A stretch of DNA of 64,000 bases from Octopus vulgaris (Eukaryota): contig OX597817.1 in NCBI GenBank assembly GCA_951406725.2, positions 116,870,001 through 116,934,000 of the forward strand, in the 5' to 3' direction. This document shows, one piece after another, positions 1,007 through 61,835 of this stretch. Position 1 is the stretch's first letter. Every line of letters begins with the position of its first letter. The notes beneath the pieces are model-generated. The model saw only the letters and a list, made by a program, of their open reading frames with translations. It was not told where the DNA came from and did not search any database. The position numbers and the translations under genes were made by a program.

Positions 1007-4000
1007 CAAGTACAAGTTGTTGATTAGCCCCCAACTACGCTTTGATGAAACAAATGATTCATCAACGGTTTTTTAGTCATAATCATTCCATAACTTATTG
1101 TACAACTAGAATATTAATGACCAATGTAATATACCTTCCTCTTAACAAGCAGAATAAATTTCGAAGTAGATGTGCTTGCTATTTCGATCAGATATTTGGA
1201 TTTTGTCGAAATCGCATAGACGACGCGTTTGGATATAAGTATAATGAGCTATGAAAGCTACTAATAATGTGAAATCAATGTAAACTCAATATATTTAAAG
1301 TTTCGAATTTGACACTTCTTCATCTTGAAATTACGCTTCATGGTTGTTACCAACGCTATTTTAATGAAATTCACTTCTCACTTAACCTCGGGTTCTTTTA
1401 CTTAAATTCAAACTCAAAGAAAGCACAGTAAATGTAAAATCATGAAGTACGGTATGATTATTTTTATTTTACACACTTTTGGAAGTGTTTTAAGCTCAAT
1501 TACATTCACTTAAAATGTACAAAACATTACAAGTTTATTTTAGCTATTTAGGTTAATTTCTGTTATATTCGAATACTGTGGCTATATTCGTGTTGCAGAT
1601 ATTCTGACTTACTCAGAAAAGAACTCATGCTCTATCGTAGTGGCAACTTTTGTTTTATCGTGTCACTGAGTTTCCTTTTCTGCATAACCTGAAGCATAGA
1701 TTACTATATAATATAATATTCACATTTCCGATAATTTTCCTAAATACTCTGCATGATTGGTCACAGAGATTCAATTTATGTATATACTCAATACACATAT
1801 ATTTTGGCATCTGATTCCACCCTTTCTCCAGGACACTGCATAATGGCAGTTTAGTGATGTTTTGCTTGGTGGTTTCATGGGATCTTCGAGAACTACGTTG
1901 TCTGTTTAATGTCGTTAGATTACAAACATTCCTTCAGCATATCCTAAACTCATTCTGAGCCTCGTATTTTGAACATTCTACATCGAAATTTTAAGAGCAG
2001 CTTATATAGATGCCCTCTAACATTTTAATATTAATGATGATACTGCCGCTCCGTCTATATGTTGGTAAATTCAATTTTTCTCTAAGCCCAAAGCATGCTT
2101 GAATACAGTATTAACATCTTTAGTCTTTGACATATTGTTTTTTTATCTAATTTCAATCAGACAAATATAAATGCCGAGACTTTTGGACACATTCTAGACA
2201 CTCACTTAACAGAAATGATATAAATATATTTTTGATTTGATTTGTAAAGTCTGCAATATCTACATATAAAAGAGGTCTGGCGTAAGTGGGGAAATGACCA
2301 GAAGCAATTTCAGTATGGTTAGAATTTATTTGAAATATATACTAAATATACAAATTAGTTCAGTACGATATCTACAAAAGCATTCAGCTATCCCCCTGGA
2401 ATTCATGAATATCAATGTGTTTCATATACAAGAATAAAAAAGAAAAGATCTTATATCAATAGATATGAATAATTTTATGCATTTTATCAAATCGGTAGCT
2501 CTTGGAATTATGTATATATTCTATGAAGTTCAATAATAAAGGATTGAAAATCTTTACCTATTACTCTATTTTCTTGACAATAATTTGGATGATTAAATAT
2601 TCAATCTACATCATATTTCACCTTAATTCAATGAAAACATTACCATTTTTACTTGTATATTTTCAGTTTAGGTATTATGAACACAACATAGTTATTAAAT
2701 ATATTATCTATTTATATAATTTTTGTTGTATTTTGTTTATCTTCGTTGAATTGCATTTCAGGATTACTTCCAAATGTTGCTATAATCCTTGACGTAACAA
2801 TCAACATATAATCAGTACTTTCAAGTCTGCTTCCATTGAAAGCAATTTTAATAATCTACTGTGAATTTGTTTTCACTTAGAGACAAACAACGTCTATCCT
2901 CTTAAGATATTTTATTACAGAACAAATAATGAGTTGAGATTTATTTGTGATATATTTCTTGCTAGAAAAAGCGCTTTATCGACTCACCTCAGTCTATTCT
3001 TGTAATTGTATTGGCAGTAAGAATGGTATCAATATAAATATATAAATTACTCTCTTCGGAATTGCACATGAATGCGAACATTTTAAAATATGTTACTTTT
3101 GTAAGCTAGCAATACAAAGTAGATTGTAGAATTTCTAGATTTCTTTAAGATTTAAATTAACACACTAATATGCACACATACATATCACAGATATATAGTG
3201 AAAGGTTAATTGTAACCCTTTAAGAAAACACCTAATCTACTGTATTCACTTTCCGTTTAATTATAAATAGTATAATCTATTATGAATTTTCTAAAATCTT
3301 AGTGCACATCTGCGACCAACTCGCTGACTTAATTCCACGGCATTAGTTAAAAATCATTTACTGATAAGTTTTCATACACTTAGCTGGCTTTGTTTTCTTT
3401 CTGTGTTTTTTTTTTATATTTCCCAAACTTTTTTGTCATCTATGTTTCTTCAAAATATTTAAATTTACATATGTTATCTTAAAGTACAATGTGCTTAGTC
3501 CGTGGTCAGATCAGTTTCTTTTTGTAATATTTGAGTAAATTTACATTTTTGTTTATTTCAAAACTTAAGCCTGCAGCGCTAATTTATTGATGTTCTTTGA
3601 ACATTGTAGAAGTGGAATTTTTTGTGAATTTCAAATTTAATTCCGATTTACCAAACTTAATCTTTTCTGGCAGAGATCGTAAATATAACAAAGGAGTTAC
3701 AAATATTCCAAACTAAAAAACGGAAAAATAACGGGTACTTTATCATCTTACCTACAATTATCTACTAAGAAGACAGGTAGTAGTAGATGTAGTGACTCAA
3801 ATTCAAAACTCATGAGTAGTTGAAGCATAACTAGAAATTCCATACAAATGCAATCCTCTGATTATATCAGGATGTCATTATGTATAAAGGAAGCAAAAAT
3901 GTTTTGACATTGTCTAAGAAGTGACAATAGGTAGTATACACTCTCTATACCGTAATAAATTTTGAGATGCAAGAGACAAAAATATCTAAGGATACAACAT

Positions 4001-4125
4001 GCCCAATAACTAAGAAGTTGATAACATAGTGTTTGTAGATGCCACGCCAAATATGGAAGTACCTAATAGATCTAAGTTTTATCATTTAAGAAAGCAATTT
4101 CAATATTTACGTTACAGATTAAAAC

Positions 4126-4335
4126 GGCGACATGGCACAATCGTTAGCACATCGGACAATGTTTTGCGGCTTTTCCTTCGTCTTTACCTTCTGAGATTAC
4201 ATTCCGCCGATGTCGACTTTGCCTTTCGTTTCTTCTGGGTCGATAATACAAACGGCAGATGAACGCTGTGGTGTATGTAATCGATTTATCCCTTGCTCAA
4301 GATTACTGGCCATGTGCCGAAATTTGAAATCAATA
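4126..4335 (+). mobile_element. tRNA-type SINE, family B (octopus OR-like)
   Basis: GGCGACATGGCACAATCGTTAGCAC...ATTCCGCCGATGTCGACTTTGCC...AAATTTGAAA matches the copies at 15354, 23027 and 37413. Confidence 0.8.
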
Positions 4336-6237
4336 TTTAATTTACAGATTTAAAAATTCAGATATACTATTCGGGTTAGCGTCTGTGAGTTACATCGTTT
4401 TGACACTTGTATATTTAAAACGAATTTCATTTGTAGACATATAAGAGATAGAATATGCTACAATTCAACCTAACCCTGTTTTAACACTCTAAAATAGTTA
4501 CATTTTAGATTTTACCGTAGATTACCTAAGCAAAGAATTTTAAATCGTTTGACTTTCTGTCACATGAAGCACTTGCTCGTAGGATATAAGTTGTGTGTAA
4601 TGAATGTTAATGTATATTACTCGAGATAATACTTTAATGAAATCAGCTCATATCCGTCCAAATGGAAAAACTGTAACTTCTTATTAAGTTGCAAATATAG
4701 ACACTACAAACACTGAATTGTGACTGAGTTTTGATACCTACATAAAGGTTTATATTAATTAGATTCCAAGCTATGTTTAATCTGCCCAGAAAGAAACTCC
4801 TCATTTCTGAATACACCATATAATATTATAGTAAAGTGTTTTCAAGAGTTTTTCTTTGCATAATACGAACCACTTATCTACATGAAGTATGATTTGTACA
4901 GTTTATGAAACTTTACTGAAATTGCCAATAGGAAGAAAATTTTTAATTTTAAGATAACCCTTGAATCTAGAAAACATAATGGTTTTCCAAGTCTTACTGA
5001 ACCCTATCCTAAGTAATATATTTTGCTTACAACTTCAAATCACTCGGCAAACACAGTGTTCCTTTATTGAAGTCTTCTTTTTGGCCGTATCGGTTCGAGA
5101 AAAAACTCTTGATTATGTAGTGTATACGATCGTGATTATTGCCTGTTACATTTGTTCACATATTCTTGATTAAATAATCAAATAAACCACTGCTTTTGCT
5201 CCATAAAATTCCATTATCTTTCTCTTGAAGCCGAGTAATTATATAATATAACAGTAGAAAAGATGTTGGTTTAAATTATAAAAGACATTTTACAATTCCA
5301 TTTCTATTATATAATTATTTTACAACTTCCTTTGATTGCTAATAATTTATGGCGGACAAAGTCAGACATAATTAGCAAAAACTAAATTTAGCTTGTAAGC
5401 TTTGCTTTGTGGTTATTTCGGATGATACATTACCAATATCACTTTTGACATTTTTGTCTAAATTTTCTACTCTCCCAATTAAAAATTTTATCATTTTATG
5501 TTATATTTTTTAGAGTTTTGTCAAATTTTCAACGTTTTCTAATTCTAACAATACTTCAAAAATATATTTCTACTATTTCAAATTGAATAGAGGAATATCG
5601 CTAATAGAGGTCTTTAAGATAAAATCTGCATTTATTTGTCAAACTGAGGAAATATAAAGTTAAATTGAATAATAAAATAAATGTTCAAAATATATTATTC
5701 ATCTTACAAAACATGAGGGGTCAGATTATAGACTTGGATTTCACTTTCCACATGTCTAAGAGTTAGATTTTAATGAAATTCATAAGAAATAATATCTGGC
5801 ACCGATTTTATAGCATTAATACTTAGAAAGAAAAGAATTTCGTTCCTAATACACCATCAATGTACCAAGTGAAACTTAGCAAGATTTTCCAAAAGATTTT
5901 CCTATTTTCCAAAAGCCAGCTAAACCTAAACGTATCCCTTCAAATGTCCTCTTTATATAGGTAACCTAAATGAAACTTGTTCAAATACTAAATGCAGCGC
6001 AATGCCAAATTTAGTCATCAATCTGGGATGAACGTTTAAAAGTAGTTGTATAAACAGAAGACCATTAAACATACATACGGACGTACATATACACACACTC
6101 ACGCGTATACGCACACACACACAATCACAGACACAGATACATACACACAATCATAGACACAGCCATACACACACACAATCACAGACACACACATGCATAT
6201 GCATATGTATGTATCCATACACTGTGTTTATGCATAT

Positions 6238-9169
6238 CAGGTCATTTATGAGCCTCTCATAAGTGCTACTGGTAACATGGAACCTGTTGCACGGTCGGGT
6301 TGTCGGCGAATAAACAGGCACCCCCACTAGGCTACCCTGGTGAGGAGGGTTGCTAGAAACTCAGCAAGATTAAAAACAAGACCTGTTGAAAGGTCTGATG
6401 AACCTAGGGCAGGCTCAACGGTTATCTAGCAATAGCACGGGTACGCAGGAATTTCCGGGATGGTGTCCGGCGTGCTGAAAGACCGCTGGGAGTGAGGCAC
6501 GAGTAAGATTCTGTTTAAGCATGTCTCTAGAGAAGGTCACTCTGATATAAAACCAGATATGCAGGGAATGGCATTGGACATTTTGGGGATCTTTGGTTTG
6601 TGCTAGAGATCATGGCACTCCCACACCCCTGAGTCTCTGATTCATAGTGGCACCAGACACCTTGCTCTGGCTTGTCTCTGGACAATGTCAATAAAGTGAA
6701 AAGGGACTGTGAGGTGTCATGCAAGCTTTATTGGACCTAAAACTATGCACAGGCATTGCTGACCTCTACTCAATAGGTGCTGTTTATTTTTCATGCTATA
6801 TATATTTATTATATTTTTATTCGGAAGTCCTGCGGGCTTGGAAGGTGGCGAGGCATGTAAATCTGATGGGTTGGAAGCATGTAGTCAGCGACCTGCACGT
6901 AGGCGGCCCATGCTAGATATAAAGTCGTCTCCTTGTCGCCCAAAACAGCGGTAGGATTCAGTTGCTGCATGGGTGTCTAAACAGCTCCATTTGGAGAGGG
7001 CTCTCCTCACTTGAGGCCTGAGGAGGTTCTGAAAAAGTGAACCAAAAATTGCCTGTCTTTCTATATCTGGTCAGTTTAGCGCGACAGACGAATGCCCAAC
7101 CTGCGATCGAAAAACAAAGAGACTATTATTTACGAAATCTGGATGGGGCTTGAACATCTCATGTTGGAATGTGCGTACTCTGTTGGATAACAAGAGTGAT
7201 TTTAGGCCTGAAAAACGCACTGCACTGAACCGCTATAACATTGATGTAGCTGCACTATCAGAGACTTGTATAGAAGGTTATGGTCAGCTTCAGTAAGTAG
7301 GAGGTGGATACACGTTTTTGGAAGGGGAGGAAGAAGAAGGAGGAAGGCAGAGAGGCTGGTGTTGGCTTTGTAATTCAATCTGATATTCTTAAGAACTTGG
7401 GGGAGCTTCCTGTTTCCATAAATGAAACACCTGAAAGGTGGGTGGTTTGCTACTCTAATAAGTGCCTATGCACCTACTTTGACTAGTAGTGATTTCGTTA
7501 AAGCTATTTTTTTTATACCCCTCTGAGAGCCATACTTAGGAAAATCTCTAATTCTAATAAATTCATTCTTTTGGGGGATTTCAATGCCAGGATCGGAGCA
7601 GACTGGTGAAAATGAAACTCTCCAGGACGTTTTGGTGTAGGGAAAACGAATAGCAATGGTCTCCTGTTGCTGGAGCTTTGCGATGAACATGGACTTTACA
7701 TCGCACACACTCATTTTATGCACAAAGGTGATCACACAAAAAACGTGTATGCATCCAAAGTCTAAAGTTTGGCACTTGCTGGATTATGTCATCATCTGCA
7801 AGCTTGACATCTATGACATTTGCAATGTCAAATCCTTTCATGGAGCGGAATGCTGGACAGACGACAGTCAGGTGCGAGCAAAGTTCCGGATGATGATTAG
7901 AGTGAAAGAAAGAAGAGGGCCAGACGAGACACTTCGGCGTCCGAATGTCCACAAGATATATGTGTTGAGAAATGAGATTCAGGCTCGCTTGTCCAGCATT
8001 GAAAGTACTGTAGCATGGGAAGATGTTCGAGACCAGGCTCTTCAATGTGCTGCTGAAACACTGGGATCTGCTGCCGCCAGACACAGAGACTGTTTTGATG
8101 AAAATGGAGCAAGAGAAGTGCTATGAGCAGAATAAGTATCTTATCCAGGTATTCATTGATTTGACGAAGACCTTTGATACTGTGAATAGGTCCTTGCTGT
8201 GGAAAATACTTGATAAAGTTGGATGTCCAGATCACTTTGTATCTATAATTAAATCATTTCATGATGAGATCGGGGCTTGGGTCAGTGTTGGTGGTGGCAT
8301 GGCAGGACCCAATCCTGAAGAGAATGTTGTCAAGCAGGGTGACATCCTTGCACCAACTCTCTTTTCTGTGTACTTTGCTGCTGCTTTTACTCATGCTTTT
8401 CCTAAGGTTAGCTCTCTGGGAATACATGTCAAGTATCAATCTACTGGTCGTCTCTGTAATCCGACCCAATGTGCTGCCAGTTCAAACGTTTTCCTGTCTC
8501 TTATTCGTGTGCTGACATCGCTCCTTTACTCTTGTATTACATGGACCCTTTACAAATTTCATGTGAGGGTCCTTGAACGCGTTCATCAGAGATGCCTCAG
8601 GCACATTCTGGATATCGGTTGGTCCTTAAAAACTCCAGACACACAGGTCCTGAAGACAGCTGATATTATTAGTAGTGAGGCGATGGTGCACAAGCACCAG
8701 GAACGTTGGATTGGACACCTTATTAGAATGAAAGATGGCAGGATCCCTAAGCAGATGATATATGAGGAACTTGTGAATGGAAAGAGACACCGGCAGAGAC
8801 CAAGGCTGCGATTTAAGGACTGTGTCAAGTCCTCATTAAAGGCCTGTGATATGCAGGAGACTGACTGGGAGAGCAATGCCTGTCATCGCCACAGATGGTG
8901 GAAGCACGTTAAGGAGACGGTCGACGCCTTTGAGAGAGCACGTATTCTGCATGACGAACTTAAGCGTATTGCTCGAAAGCGCATTCCTCGTGTGGTGAAT
9001 AGGGAAAGCTTGGTTTGTAATGTTTGCAGTCATGTATGCTTTTCAAGAGTAGGGCTCATTAGATACCGACGGAGCGGTAATTGCAAAATATAGGCTAATC
9101 CTAGAGGGCACAATGTTTCTGAAGGTCAGCGATGGTCTTCCTTGGTCACGAGTGGACGGCTATCATATA
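6238..9169 (+). mobile_element. RTE-clade non-LTR retrotransposon, internally deleted and decayed
   Basis: APE motifs WNVRTLLD (about 7165), GVGFVI and HPKSKVWHLLDYVI; RT motifs FIDLTKTFDTVNR and VKQGDILAPTLF; RTE-type C-terminus RWIGHLIRMKDGRIPKQMIYEEL; degenerate TSD CATACACT(AT)GTGTTTATG(C/T)ATAT at 6216-6237 and 9170-9193. Confidence 0.92.
8023..9093 (+). pseudogene. RTE reverse transcriptase remnant lacking the YADD catalytic region
   Basis: The 356-aa ORF runs from RT motifs 3-4 straight into the C-terminal region (LIRVL|TSLLYSCITW) with no YxDD. Confidence 0.85.
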
Positions 9170-34928: not shown

Positions 34929-35284
34929 TCATTTACACGTGTCGGAATGTATGTGCGTAAAGGTGTTTAGATATTTTAATAATGAAAAAAATACACGGAT
35001 AGAAAAACTTGATACCGAAGGTTGTTTCACATTACTTATTTGAGTAATTAATTGCGTTCTGTGTTTTGCAGTTTCGTGTTTCTTGTTAGAGCTAAAATGA
35101 TTTTGTATTAATCACAAATGCACAAACAGAATAAAAAGGCACAGAAGGGACATAAGGAACAGCTACTGCACGTAGTAGGCAACTGCACTACATTTCTGTA
35201 TTTCTGTAGTCCGACAGCACAAGCGTAGAATAATATTAGATAAATATACCTACTGTTCTTGATGTATAAGATCCGCAGATCACC

Positions 35285-37292
35285 CTGATCGAATATGTGT
35301 ATCGGCATATCTATCCCAGAGTATGGTTGCTTTCTCGTTTTCTGTGACCTTTTCTGGTGTGTGCCTATACCATCTTTTTTCTGTTGTTATTCCGTAATGT
35401 TGGCATAGCTTCCAGTGTACGTAGGTTCCAACTCTGTCATGTCTGTGAATATATTCCTTCTTAGCCAGGACTGGGCAGCTAGAGATAATATGATTTATTG
35501 TTTCTTGTCCATCTCCACATATTCTGCAGTTACTTGTAATATTTCTTTTCATTACATGTTTTTGGTAATTTCTGGTGGGGAGGCTTTGGTCTTGTGCTGC
35601 AATTAAAAATCCCTCTGTTTCTGCTTTGAGTCCTGAGCTTCTCAACCATTGCTGGGATTTTTCTTTGTATATTTCTTTTGCGTTTAGTTTAGTGCAGTAT
35701 TTACCATGAAGGGGCTTTTCTTGCCATCGTTTTATCATGGCTCATTGCTGTTCTACTTTTAGTTTGGATTTCATTTGTTTTATAGCTTTTGTTGTTTCTT
35801 CATCATCATCATCTTCTTCTTTGTGTTTATTAGGTGGTATGATTTCTTGTTTGTATTTGTCATCTTCCTTAAATACTGAGAACAGTTTTTTTGTTTTGCT
35901 CGTGTTTTGCTTCTATCTGGATCAGTTTTCCTTCCTTCTGAAGTAGATATTTTTGCAGTCCTATGGTGGTTATTTTATAGTAGTTTTCCAGCTGTATAAG
36001 GCCTCTACCATCTTCTATACGTTGGATATATAGTATTTCTATGTCAGATTTTGGGTGATGCATCCTAGATCCTGTCAGTATTTTTCTTGTTTTCCTATCT
36101 ATTTTGGACAGTTCATTTCGTGTCCAGTTAAGGATATTGTAGCTGTAACTTATAACTGGGACAGCTAAAGTGTTGATACCTATTATCTTGTTTTTAGCAT
36201 TGAGCTCTGTTTTTAGTATTGATCTAACTCGTCTATAATATTCTTTTTTTATTTTCTCTTTCATCTGTGTGTGTTGTGTCTTATCTAGTTCATGGATTCC
36301 TAAGTATTTGTAAGTTTGGCTTTGGTCTAATTCTTCTATTTCATTGGTTTTATCTAGTGTGATGTTGTTACTCTTAACTAGTTTTCCTCTTTTCATGGTT
36401 ACTTTGGCGCATTTTTCTAATCCAAATTTCATATCTATTTCTTTGGTAAATCCATGAACTGTCTTTAATAGTGTTTCCAGCTGTTTGTCATTTGCAGCGT
36501 ATAGTTTTAGGTCATCCATATATAAAAGGCGGCTGATCGTTTTGCCGTAACATTTATATCCGCATCCAGTTCTATTTAGCATATCAGATAGAGGTGACAG
36601 TGCCAAGCAGAAAAGGAGTAGAGAGATCGTGTCTCCCTGGAATATTCCTCTTCTAATGGGGATGTCTTTGGTTTTCATGAGTCCCTCTTTTGTTTGGAGG
36701 TGTAGGACTGTTTGCCATTTATTCATAGAGTGCTCTATGAATTTTATGATTGTTGGTGCTACTTTGTTAATGGCTAGTGTTTCGAGGATCCATGTGTGGG
36801 GGATGCTATCAAACGCCTTTTTGTAGTCAATCCAGGCCATACTGAGGCCTTTCTTCTTTCTGTGGCTGTCTTCAGTTACGGCTTTATTAATCATTAGTTG
36901 ATCTTTACAGCCATATGAGCCCTTGCGGCATCCTCTCTGCTCTTCTGGGAACAGTTTGTTTTCGTCCAGGTGCTTGTTCAGCCTTTGCGATATCACTGCA
37001 GTAAATGCCTTGAACATAGTAGGGAGGCAGGTTATTGGTCTGTAGTTTTCTGGTTTTGTTGTTTCATTTGATTTGTGAATTAAGATGGTTTTCCCCTTCG
37101 TGAGCCATTCAGGCATTGTCTCTGGCTCTGCTAGTATGCTGTTAAAGTTTTCAGCCAGCTTTTTGTGCATTCCTGTTAGATATTTCAACCAGAAGTTGGG
37201 GATCTTGTCATGCCCAGGTGCCTTCCGGTTCCTTAGTTTTTGCAGTGCCTGGGTAACCTCTTCAGTTGTTATGGGGGTCCAAAGTTGTTCAG

Positions 37293-37296
<4 letters not shown>
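35285..37296 (-). mobile_element. R4/Dong-clade (RLE) non-LTR retrotransposon, RT and CCHC fragment truncated at both ends
   Basis: KAPGHDKI, NYRPITCLPT, EQRGCRKGSYGC, WIDYKKAFDSIPH, RGIFQGD, LLYMDD, YKYLGI; then AAQDQSLPTR, CRICGDGQETINHIISSC, RHDRV; 5' junction abuts (TAA)n at 37297-37410. Confidence 0.95.
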
Positions 37297-37386
<90 letters not shown>

Positions 37387-37412
37387 CATCATTATTATCA
37401 TTATTATTATGC

Positions 37413-37622
37413 AGGCAGTGAATTGGTAGAATCATTACCGTGCCGAACATAATGCAACACAGCATTTCTTCTGATTTACGTTCTGGGTTCAGACGCCGTC
37501 AAAGTTGACTTTGTCTGTCATCCTGCAGGTTTCTTAAAATATGTACCAGTTGAATACTAAAGTTGGCGAAATCGGCTATATTGTTCCCGTAAAATTTCAG
37601 TCCGTAAATCTGTTGTAAAATT
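37413..37622 (+). mobile_element. SINE family B, decayed
   Basis: GGCAGTGAATTGGTAGAATCATTA...TTTACGTTCTGGGTTCAGA...GTTGACTTTG...GTACCAGTTGA. Confidence 0.7.
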
Positions 37623-43048: not shown

Positions 43049-43908
43049 GGGTTTATCATAGCAGCTCAAGATCAATGCCTACCAACAAGAAACTACCAGG
43101 CCAACATATTAAAGATCAGAAGCAGTCCAACGTGTCGTGTATGCAAGCAACAAAATGAAACCATTGACCATGTGGTCTCCAAGTGCAGTCTTCTAGCGCC
43201 TACAGAATATCTCAACAGGCACGATAGAGCTGCACAATATATTCACTGGGTAATCTGTAAAAACCTGGATTTGCCCCATGAAAAAAACTGGTGGGAACAC
43301 AAACCACCCCCAGTGCTTGAAAATGACCACATCTCACTCCTCTGGAACTTCGCCATTCAAACTGACAGAAAGATAGATGCAAATAGGCCAGACATCATAT
43401 TGAAAGACTTCAAACAAAGAACATGCCTCCTCATTGATATGACTGTCCCAATCGATATAAACGTATCTGTCAAGACCTACCAAAAACTGAGCAAATATAA
43501 AGATCTTGAAATAGAAATCAGCAAAATGTGGAAGCTGAAGACTAAAACAATACCTGTTGTCATAGGTGCCCTGGGAATGATAGCAAAAGGGGCAGATAGC
43601 TACCTAACTCAGATACCAGGAAACCCCAAAATGGCAGAAATTCAAAAGATAGTGCTCATGGGAACTGCTCATATCCTACGCAAAATACTTTCTATGTAAT
43701 CTCAAGGTTTAAAACAAACATAATTTTCGGTTTAAAAAAAAAAAAAAAAAAAATTTTTTAGACATTCATTAGTACAACACCCCCACCCGCCAAATATATG
43801 GCACACTAGGCATAACAACAACATGAACTTCCAACCCTGTTGTCTCTTGAGGTCTCTGGGTGAGACTTGGAGCCAACTTGTACAAATATAAAGCAAAAGT
43901 CAAACATA

Positions 43909-59397: not shown

Positions 59398-60022
59398 CAC
59401 AGGCATACAGGAGTAGATGACCTTCCAACAATATGGTTTCGGGTTCAGTCCCACTGCGTGACTCATTGCGGTAGTGTCTTCTACTGTAGCCTGAAATCAA
59501 TAAAAGAATAAAAGAATGTATGCATATATGTATGTATTTTGTATGTATGTATATATATATATATATATATATATAAGTAAAATTAATACGTTCTCAAACC
59601 GGCAAAAGACTACTGCAGTGAATTATTTTATGTAGTATCATTTCCGGTAATTTAGCGCGCCTAAACGAAGACTTTTGAAAATAACCACAAATGTAATAGG
59701 TAGAAATGCATGCATTTTCGTCCTCATCTTGATGTCTGGCGTGAAGTTCTGCAAATCATAATTTGCATAGACGATAATACTGAAGATCTACAGATAAATT
59801 GTGTAAGTAAAATTACGTAATTTGTTGATAGTGAAACAATTGTTTATGATTCATCTATATTTTAGATACTTTTCATTTGTCTTGCTCGCTTACGTTTCTT
59901 GTTCTTGCTTAATTTTCTGGAGAACGACTCTTAGTGGTTAAGACCATAGCGGATCTTCTAGCATATTGCTTTCTACTTAGTGGTAAAGAATTCCCTCTTA
60001 TATTTATGCATTTATATATATT

Positions 60023-60490: not shown

Positions 60491-61021
60491 ATAGAAGATA
60501 TACATCTATTCATCCATCCATCAATCCATCCATCCATCCATCCATCCATACATACATACATACATACATACATACATACATACATACATACATACATACA
60601 TACATTTATACCTAGTGGTAACGTGTCAGTCAGTGATCCTTGTCAAGTGTTCGGACAATCAGTGCGTTAACCACCGACTCTAGCACAGCCTACTTAATCA
60701 GGAGAGTGGTTTTCAGAGGACAAACTGCAGGGCAATAGTTTAAACTTGTGAAAGGCAGTTGAACTCAATAGACTTCATTTGTAGTAAAGATTGCTTGCTA
60801 ACATAACATGGCAGTCCTGGTTTACGACGAATGTTGCTGTAATTTAGTCCCAGGGGACATCGTGTCCAGCTGGATATACGACATGATCTCTGTAATTATA
60901 GCACCCCCACTCAGCTAAAAACAATTTCTGTGTATCGCGATTTCCGGGTTATTTCCCTAATTGTTCACACACACACACACATATATGATCAAATGAATAA
61001 CAGAGGATGGATAGGTGTCAA

Positions 61022-61106
61022 CTCATTACAGCTGTTTCTAACGCATTTTTTTAAATAGAAGAATGAGAACGTAACTTCATTACAAAAACCGTAATCATCA
61101 GATGAA
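61022..61106 (-). ncRNA. Type I hammerhead ribozyme with canonical core, palindromic stem III and long loop II
   Basis: Minus strand TTCAT-CTGATGA-TTACG-(46 nt)-CGTTA-GAAAC-AGCT-GTA-ATGAG; stem I TTCAT/ATGAG, stem III ACAGCTGT self-complementary, cleavage triplet GUA. Confidence 0.78.
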
Positions 61107-61835
61107 ACGTAATTTTACAAACAAAAGAATAACCCAAGAATACAGACAGGACGTGGTTGACGACTGTCGAGGCTAACTACGAAATGGGAGAATGGCCAAC
61201 CAAACTGCCCGTTGTGGGCACTAGGGGGCAGGGTTAGGTTAAGAACATAGTTTGTGAAAGCGAGTAATATATTTAAGGTCAGCGATCCGGATGAGATAGG
61301 AGTCTGTTAGTCTGGTTCTTTGGTAAGCTAGATGTGGTGTGTATTAATTTCGATTCATATGGTTATAATTTTTACGTCCTAATTTCTCCATCATATAACT
61401 AATTGACATGACTTATCATAGAATTTTACCTTATCAGTGTTTTCTTCTTTCTTGTAACTTATATATTTTGCAGTCTTCGCTTCACTTTTACATGCTCCAA
61501 AGAACGCTTTCAAAAATACTGTTCGACGCAGACTCGCTGACACTGCCGTTTGCCTTGTACATATGTTTACAACTCCACACCAATGAACACATCTATATTG
61601 ACATATTTAATTACATTTACACACACACACACACACACAATGTTACAAGCACGCACGCATACAAACACATAAACACACACGCTTGCATACACACACACAA
61701 ACATATACACATCCATACCCTCGTTTTCATTCAATGACTTTATTAATTAGATATTCATATGATTCTCACAACCATCCCAAACAACACCACCAAATTTACA
61801 TGAATGCATACATCTACACTGATATACACTGATAT

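Follow-up and report, generated by a model that had tools for sequence, protein, structure and literature searches.

Hammerhead motifs with a long, pairing-conserved helix II in Penelope-like retrotransposons of the octopus, and a probably weak or inactive copy at one locus

Hammerheads in Hydra-clade Penelope-like elements are already known. The motifs listed in File S2 of Craig 2021 (PMC8557442), in which the octopus family Hydra-1_Obim is included, agree with those considered here in being of type I, in lying in sense orientation near the 3' end of the element, and in having a short stem I, a palindromic stem III of the form AC...GU, frequent U-U at position 1 of helix II and insertion into (TA)n. 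The listed motifs have 12-26 nt between the two parts of the core (26 published rows) and belong to elements of less than about 3 kb, whereas the octopus motifs have 45-105 nt there, a perfect 8-nt palindrome and a 1,072-aa ORF with N-rich linkers in a 4.7-kb unit, with a 3' UTR of 0.6-1.7 kb and tens of thousands of copies. With 56 nt, the motif in the 64-kb stretch of Octopus vulgaris DNA analyzed here (the window) is thus as unusual in this respect as had been proposed from the sequence.

The minimal Penelope hammerheads (Cervera and de la Pena 2014, PMC4209133) resemble the octopus motifs in their location in pseudo-LTRs, in being mostly solitary because they derive from truncated copies, in the occurrence of close inverted pairs, in their dimer-type architecture, and in their U-rich 5' and AU-rich 3' flanks. 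The descriptor used there (stem II of 3-7 bp, loop of 3-10 nt, at most 26 nt) is exceeded by the octopus motifs. The original prediction took a tiny stem II to be usual for this class, which fails as a general rule, since minimal hammerheads of Schistosoma have a helix II of 7-8 bp (PMC4209133). In vitro, cleavage by Penelope hammerheads with a palindromic stem III is weak and remains so in dimers (PMC4209133, PMC6765202).

A precedent for a long helix II or loop II comes from two spike-moss elements, PLE-X1_sMoe and PLE-X1_sTam, which have about 50 nt between the core segments and were flagged as deviant (PMC8557442); unlike the octopus elements, they are endonuclease-less, rDNA-targeting single cases from plants. 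Poseidon of Anolis (Frangieh et al. 2024, PMC11167929) shares with the octopus elements two classes of 3' ends past the hammerhead and, probably, an uncut template, but belongs to another clade, has a short helix II overlapping the start codon, and carries a tail of a few tens of nt rather than the ∼125 or ∼250 nt of the octopus. Non-LTR retrozymes (PMC7229834; Li et al. 2026, preprint) likewise have type I motifs with a weak palindromic helix III and can reach high copy numbers. They are non-coding tandem repeats of ∼300 bp, whereas the octopus motif is the 3' end of a coding element and the window copy is solitary.

Further hammerhead literature was also compared (PMC6962438; bioRxiv 10.64898/2026.07.22.740005). 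A published core-only search was limited to 17 nt, and eight Naiad "half cores" 35-50 nt apart were reported unfolded. That these half cores are of the long-helix kind found no support in a string search or in the Naiad_Ovul consensus, whose 3' end contains CUGAUGA but lacks a corresponding GAAAC..GUA. The string search covered six palindrome-core strings, none of which occurred in the supplement of Craig 2021 (PMC8557442), where line breaks could hide matches. The "long helix II" of PMC13725137 has 6-8 bp. In the literature searched we found no account of such a long-helix class, either for cephalopods or for Hydra elements, and other variant surveys could hold precedents; on this basis the long helix II would be a new structural form of a known motif.

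The hammerhead in the window occupies minus-strand positions 61106-61022 (Table 1), has a complete type I core (C3-A9, G12-A14, A15.1-U16.1 and H17), and is the only motif of the window to match a strict type I descriptor. An Rfam scan of the whole window gave no match at gathering score. The core, the 5-bp stem I (its outermost pair a G-U), the dimer-type palindrome and the cut 3' of A61027 all agree with the original prediction. The 8-nt palindromic stem III cannot close as a monomer; it is predicted to pair between two ribozymes, and a cut would be expected only from such a pair. A stem II closing a 46-nt insert had also been proposed. Its 5-bp arms (TTACG/CGTTA) are present, but pair 1 is U-A in place of the canonical G10.1-C11.1, and pair 2 is a U-U mismatch.

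Table 1. Features of the hammerhead and its host element in the window (all on the minus strand)
Feature	Position	Strand	Basis
Stem I, 5' arm, TTCAT	61102..61106	-	sequence
Catalytic core C3-A9, CTGATGA (CUGAUGA)	61095..61101	-	sequence
Helix II region, long and irregular, 56 nt	61039..61094	-	folds, covariation
Helix II apical hairpin, contains TTCTCATT (61069-61062)	61062..61073	-	folds
Catalytic core G12-A14, GAA	61036..61038	-	sequence
ACAGCTGT between GAA and A17	61028..61035	-	sequence
Stem III, 8-nt palindrome ACAGCUGU (A15.1 ... U16.1)	61028..61035	-	sequence
A17, GUA triplet, predicted cut 3' of A	61027	-	hammerhead numbering
Stem I, 3' arm, ATGAG	61022..61026	-	sequence
5'-truncated 3' end (pseudo-LTR part) of family A element, decayed	60981..61343	-	blastn to genomic copies
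Junction of the element's 3' end with its (AT)(GT)n target, ∼45 nt past cut	60963..60984	-	3' end classes

A relaxed scan of the window gave two extra hammerhead-like motifs, each departing from the core. One, at 59780-59844 (+), belongs to a different family and has CUGAAGA, a 46-nt hairpin of -11.7 kcal/mol, the palindrome ACAAUUGU and U17. The other, at 11237-11198 (-), has a short helix, a broken core (CCGAUGA, with C at position 4) and the palindrome ACAGCUGU, and resembles an abundant short-spacer family of the genome.

The window motif is real and not a chance match, given the genome-wide excess of such motifs over a reversed control and stem covariation beyond 5,000 permutations. The genome was searched with the pattern CUGANGA-N-GAAACRNNYGUA, which demands the core, and the reversed pattern served as control. 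Matches numbered 25,168 for spacers of 45-75 nt (control 114), 4,833 for 76-106 nt (control 141), 3,190 for 27-44 nt (control 56) and 8,261 for 8-38 nt (control 137), the last two ranges overlapping and nested cores being counted repeatedly. About 30,000 matches have a spacer of at least 45 nt, and 33,191 lie beyond the 26-nt descriptor limit, both figures without deduplication for nested cores.

The long spacer is a family-wide irregular helix II, kept for pairing rather than for sequence. It had been described as an unusually long loop II; it is neither an open loop nor peculiar to the window copy, but is present in all copies of the family (family A) and folds as a continuation of helix II. 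In the family majority sequence, the 56 nt form a single irregular hairpin of -13.1 kcal/mol with AATG-TTCT-CATT at its tip, and the 54-60 nt of sister families, unrelated in sequence, fold in the same way (z -4.7 in L096, -1.8 in L104).

Covariation was assessed on 38 regions chosen by eye for distinctness from the first 100 of the 45-75 nt matches, on two regions with short spacers, and on earlier loci, together giving 119 distinct motifs in 36 clusters at 70% identity, none dropped. Counting outward from the core, stem I pairs are formed in 32, 33, 27 and 23 of 36 clusters (permuted 18, 15, 13, 15), helix II pairs in 19, 33, 33, 30 and 28 (permuted 17, 15, 14, 14, 14), and the inner palindrome pairs in 34 and 32 (permuted 28, 16), the outer of the two palindrome pairs being, for the C1 set, partly forced by the search pattern. 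The resulting totals (stem I 150 vs 95, helix II 213 vs 120, palindrome 66 vs 43) were reached by none of the 5,000 permutations; the test used one representative per cluster and is inflated by kinship among families, and stems I and II lie outside the search pattern. All four Watson-Crick pair types occur at most tested positions, and the palindrome center varies across clusters (AGCT, AATT, GATC, ACGT, ATAT, GTAC). Position 17 is A in 31 of the 36. The first pair of helix II, which is G10.1-C11.1 in the consensus of PMC4209133, is G-C in only 6 of the 36 octopus clusters, and is paired at chance level (19/36). For only 17 of 35 cluster representatives, many of them old copies, did the insert have z ≤ -2. 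Most of 24 matches (20 regions) in the 76-106 nt class form a single hairpin closed at the core, but in only 8 of these 24, stem I pairs 1-3 and helix II pairs 2-4 are all intact.

Short-spacer hammerheads are found in the same genome. A very young, compact Hydra family (L198-L227, for example G000:C8:58715128-58717236), with 63 near-identical matches, most of which have an intact frame of ∼710 aa, was probably active recently; its hammerhead lies ∼180 nt before the ATG, with a 10-nt spacer between the two parts of the core and the 9-nt palindrome ACUC-A-GAGU. Since this very young family has a helix II region of just 10 nt, a long helix is not a general requirement for transposition of Hydra elements. 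At L197:2026-3919 (G000:C1:14261525-14263418), a 546-bp tandem repeat with one short-spacer hammerhead per unit, together with an inverted part and beside a weak EN remnant, forms a retrozyme-like partial tandem.

By blastn, the best genomic copy of the repeat surrounding the window hammerhead is 82.5% identical over 366 nt. The repeat is dispersed, with 48 matches among the 40 candidates scored out of 714, the best being 83-87% identical, and the 3' end of the element adjoins an (AT)/(GT) microsatellite. Just past this microsatellite, at 60770-60940, contig depth indicates a very high-copy short repeat. Upstream of the motif in other copies, GIY-YIG is encoded on the hammerhead strand, with a stop 1.2-1.4 kb before the motif (Pfam GIY-YIG match in relatives, E 2.8e-5), and a natural family A copy (L109) carries RT, GIY-YIG, hammerhead and tail in this order. 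The Penelope-type assignment of the original prediction is therefore supported by the RT and GIY-YIG of relatives. Altogether, a Hydra-type EN ends 281-1,705 nt upstream of 19 distinct long-helix motifs; for most of the 36 clusters, the fetched flank contained no ORF and the host element is assumed. No ORF was found opposite the hammerhead strand in the family majority.

Placement in the Hydra clade was by motifs, for which an intact ORF in a young sister family was used. The L096 ORF has 1,072 aa from the first Met and contains RIRWR, ADKT, LYRDD and CNC-x5-C; a CxxC precedes the conserved E, a CxH follows the conserved N, and CCHH is absent. The clade is characterized by RWK, DKT, a CxCX5C linker, CxxC and CxH around E and N, absence of CCHH, a C-terminal EN and (TA)n targets (PMC8557442), so the sister ORF shows the motifs of the clade; its unit of 4,722 nt exceeds the descriptive Hydra trait of <3 kb. 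Likeness to Hydra-1_Obim was noted by eye, and the trees used homologues without named Hydra references. The Neptune clade was excluded because the sister ORF lacks the CX2-5CxxC finger, the CCHH motif and DKG, and Naiad because the EN is C-terminal and followed by the stop rather than an N-terminal GIY-YIG. A non-LTR retrozyme was rejected, there being no tandem array at the locus and the motif lying downstream of an ORF in relatives. Pfam gave no match on the full sister ORF. In a FastTree analysis with reduced rows, the family A EN grouped with those of the young sisters (SH-like 94-100). In the RT tree, in which one frameshifted row forms a long branch, a branch supported at 99/99 set the long-helix families and one protein apart from 21 homologues, an unlinked RT and the compact Hydra family. 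A single origin of the long-helix families is possible.

The elements also display Penelope hallmarks, namely close inverted pairs, two 3' end classes, a hammerhead in the pseudo-LTR, and tandem and tail structures. Among 36 family A copies, 23 end ∼45 nt and 13 end ∼290 nt past the cut site, the window copy belonging to the shorter class; in all seven scored inverted pairs, the two arms have different 3' end classes. In full-length sisters a hammerhead is also present 5' of the ORF, with the cut ∼208 nt before the ATG. The Penelope tail measures ∼250 nt in family A (L004, L015, L019) and ∼125 nt in family B (L096:2249-2409), compared with a described length of 30-40 nt. The young long-helix family represented by L096:2400-5672, L097 and L098 has two long Asn-rich insertions in the ORF and a 1.2-kb 3' UTR, and a branch-point-like and an acceptor-like sequence 5 nt before the ATG suggest a 5' UTR intron. 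Decayed non-LTR ORFs with RT-like or zinc-finger-like segments lie elsewhere in the window, at 7641-9093 (+), 35280-37431 (-) and 43049-43699 (+).

The window copy itself is ordinary, and the interest lies in the class. It has lost its 5' part and ORF and retains the 3' end only; no ORF remnant of the element was found in the window, and no other family copy spanning the motif in the window or in 20 kb beyond. Compared with the family majority, it has T for A at 61040, which mismatches helix II pair 2 (A-U in the majority, retained in 33 of 36 clusters), changes at 61073 and 61071 that break the apical hairpin (AATG to TACG), and one extra T in the 3' arm of helix II. In four public runs, the contigs are mostly paralogues, and almost all related contigs differ from the window copy at base 61073; one 390-nt contig crosses the 5' junction with a single difference, and neither expression nor cleavage was seen in these contigs.

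The original prediction considered this the best-preserved copy and the top candidate for real activity. The former applies among the three motifs of the window and not in the genome, where its helix II ranks 48th in stability among 56 siblings, with -5.2 kcal/mol compared with -13.1 in the family majority; against shuffles it has z -0.27, that is, no added stability. The core is intact in 33 of the 56 siblings; core, stem I and palindrome are all intact in only 10, among them the window copy, which speaks in its favor; and with all five helix II pairs in addition, 4 remain, excluding it. Its rank as activity candidate likewise applies only among the three motifs of the window; a wider claim is not supported, given this weak helix and a tandem-dimer model in which the double hammerhead lies 13.6 kcal/mol above the best fold, compared with 3.6 and 2.9 kcal/mol in two young sister families. 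For five further family A copies, whose cores are intact or nearly so, this gap is 11-26 kcal/mol in four and 6.4 in one, which gives family A as a whole a decayed appearance; as folding-energy gaps are noisy, the gap alone does not single out the window copy. The solitary, mutated window copy likely cuts poorly or not at all.

The explanation that we favor, and consider probable, is a decayed type I hammerhead in a Hydra-clade pseudo-LTR, with a long helix II conserved for pairing and a predicted cut after GUA in the dimer only, the window copy being weak or inactive. In intact elements, the 5' and 3' hammerhead copies, or two transcripts, would join through the 8-nt palindrome to form a double hammerhead. 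By analogy with anole Poseidon, where cleavage requires the element protein and the template is uncut RNA (PMC11167929), dimer cleavage would probably be aided by the element's own protein. Cleavage would release RNA of unit length out of tandem or read-through transcripts, and would leave an uncapped 5' end ahead of the ORF, giving an uncapped message; in RNA viruses, hammerhead cleavage in the 5' UTR can start cap-independent translation (PMC13725137). Reverse transcription would use uncut RNA. At the weakest step of this scheme, the long helix may act as a stable folding arm or protein handle, and may replace the G10.1-C11.1 pair and the loop-loop contacts that these motifs lack.

The positions of genomic ends fit a template that was not cut. 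In family A, each of the 36 scored 3' ends is downstream of the cut site, and 18 of 30 near-full-length sisters include sequence upstream of the cut; none of these 30 starts within 20 nt of it, so the genomic 5' ends give no sign of cutting. In three of the 30 (L116, L125, L126), the first base falls within the long helix II, 48-58 nt ahead of the cut, which would fit stalling or switching of reverse transcription at this point. In anole Poseidon, two internal RT starts produce the tail (PMC11167929).

A serious rival, possible in our view if somewhat doubtful, is that helix II tolerates a hairpin of any length and grew neutrally through local duplication within AT-rich elements, persisting only because its breakage would unfold the ribozyme; this view agrees with most of the favored explanation and departs from it only on the role of the helix. 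Engineered hammerheads tolerate variable helix II length. Helix II lengths are continuous among the octopus families, from <10 to >100 nt, no sequence is common to the clusters, and this genome also contains a highly active Hydra family whose helix II is short. Neutral growth is harder to reconcile with the 3:1 excess of 45-75 nt over 8-38 nt spacers (25,168 vs 8,261), and with the sampled long-helix families, which cluster on the RT and EN trees and hold 54-60 nt despite sequence identity below 70%. This retention of length during divergence suggests some length constraint.

It is unlikely that helix II is a regulatory module in which a poly(A) signal (AAUAAA or AUUAAA), 21-28 nt before the cut, lets folding choose between polyadenylation, self-cleavage and read-through. 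At this distance from the cut (21-28 nt), the 3' arm does contain AWTAAA in 13/13, 10/10, 6/6 and 2/2 copies of sister subfamilies and in 12/23 of family A, the hexamer alternates between two canonical variants, and a U/GU-rich tract follows the cut. The AATAAA/ATTAAA site of families A-E corresponds to window positions 61056-61046, where the window copy has TTTAAA, the hexamer thus being lost. At 82% clustering, 16 of 59 representatives have the hexamer compared with 7.6 in shuffled sequences, but at 70% clustering the count falls to 5 of 35 with 4.6 expected; the hexamer is confined to one lineage, and its counts are therefore not independent. Most long-helix families lack it, and AT-rich arms yield such hexamers easily.

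We regard as similarly improbable that the motif no longer cuts and that core and stems are retained as a protein-binding or dimerization structure. The absence of genomic 5' ends at the cut site (0/30) and the chance-level pairing of helix II pair 1 (19/36) would fit, as would the anole element, in which catalytic mutants left in vitro insertion unaffected and no RNA-seq reads ended at the site (PMC11167929). Against this, more than 30,000 matches in dozens of diverged families have the full core and H17, although the searches required the core and its conservation was thus not measured independently. Moreover, active hammerheads tolerate a U-U at 10.1-11.1 (PMC3088659), which is common in published Hydra motifs (PMC8557442).

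Very improbable is the alternative fold of the original prediction, in which the insert pairs with AAUGAG at the cleavage site to turn the ribozyme off in a copy that is the best candidate for activity: CTCATT (61067-61062) is perfectly complementary to AATGAG over 6 nt, and the hairpin usually occupying CATT is broken in the window copy, but the CUCAUU/AAUGAG pairing probability is 0.00 there and in L017 and L046, the two siblings having both of these sequences. Complementarity between insert and cut site is not in excess across 35 clusters (4.09 vs 4.10 nt permuted, p 0.57). In the family majority, CATT is used in its own hairpin AATG-TTCT-CATT, and this apical stem is closed in most siblings. 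AATG-NNNN-CATT is retained in related subfamilies, in which the bases following the cut vary (AATGAA, AATGGA, AATGTA), so that it is the hairpin, and not pairing with the cut site, that is conserved. Pseudoknots of helix II gave no signal with the 5' flank (p 0.74), and p 0.037 with the 3' flank, uncorrected for three tests and counted as no signal.

The ∼30,000 long-spacer matches in one octopus genome exceed the 4,000-9,000 minimal Penelope hammerheads of coelacanth and Xenopus (PMC4209133). Rfam missed the window copy, and surveys that limit loop II to short lengths undercount genomic hammerheads. The young elements have a 1,072-aa ORF and near-identical copies; with such intact elements and a deep covariation set, the purpose of Penelope hammerheads becomes directly testable. 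The AU-rich hairpins of 20-40 bp, which number in the tens of thousands, and the inverted element pairs are also candidate substrates for A-to-I editing, which is extensive in cephalopods.

A bolder reading, which we hold to be rather unlikely, is that in a cephalopod radiation of Hydra elements helix II became a functional arm of 20-40 bp, a dock for the RT-endonuclease or a poly(A)-hiding switch, that gates dimer cleavage and sorts cut mRNA from uncut template. If this were true, a major class of genomic ribozymes would have escaped notice through the length caps in published descriptors, and ribozymes might possibly also be present in Penelope clades now said to lack them.
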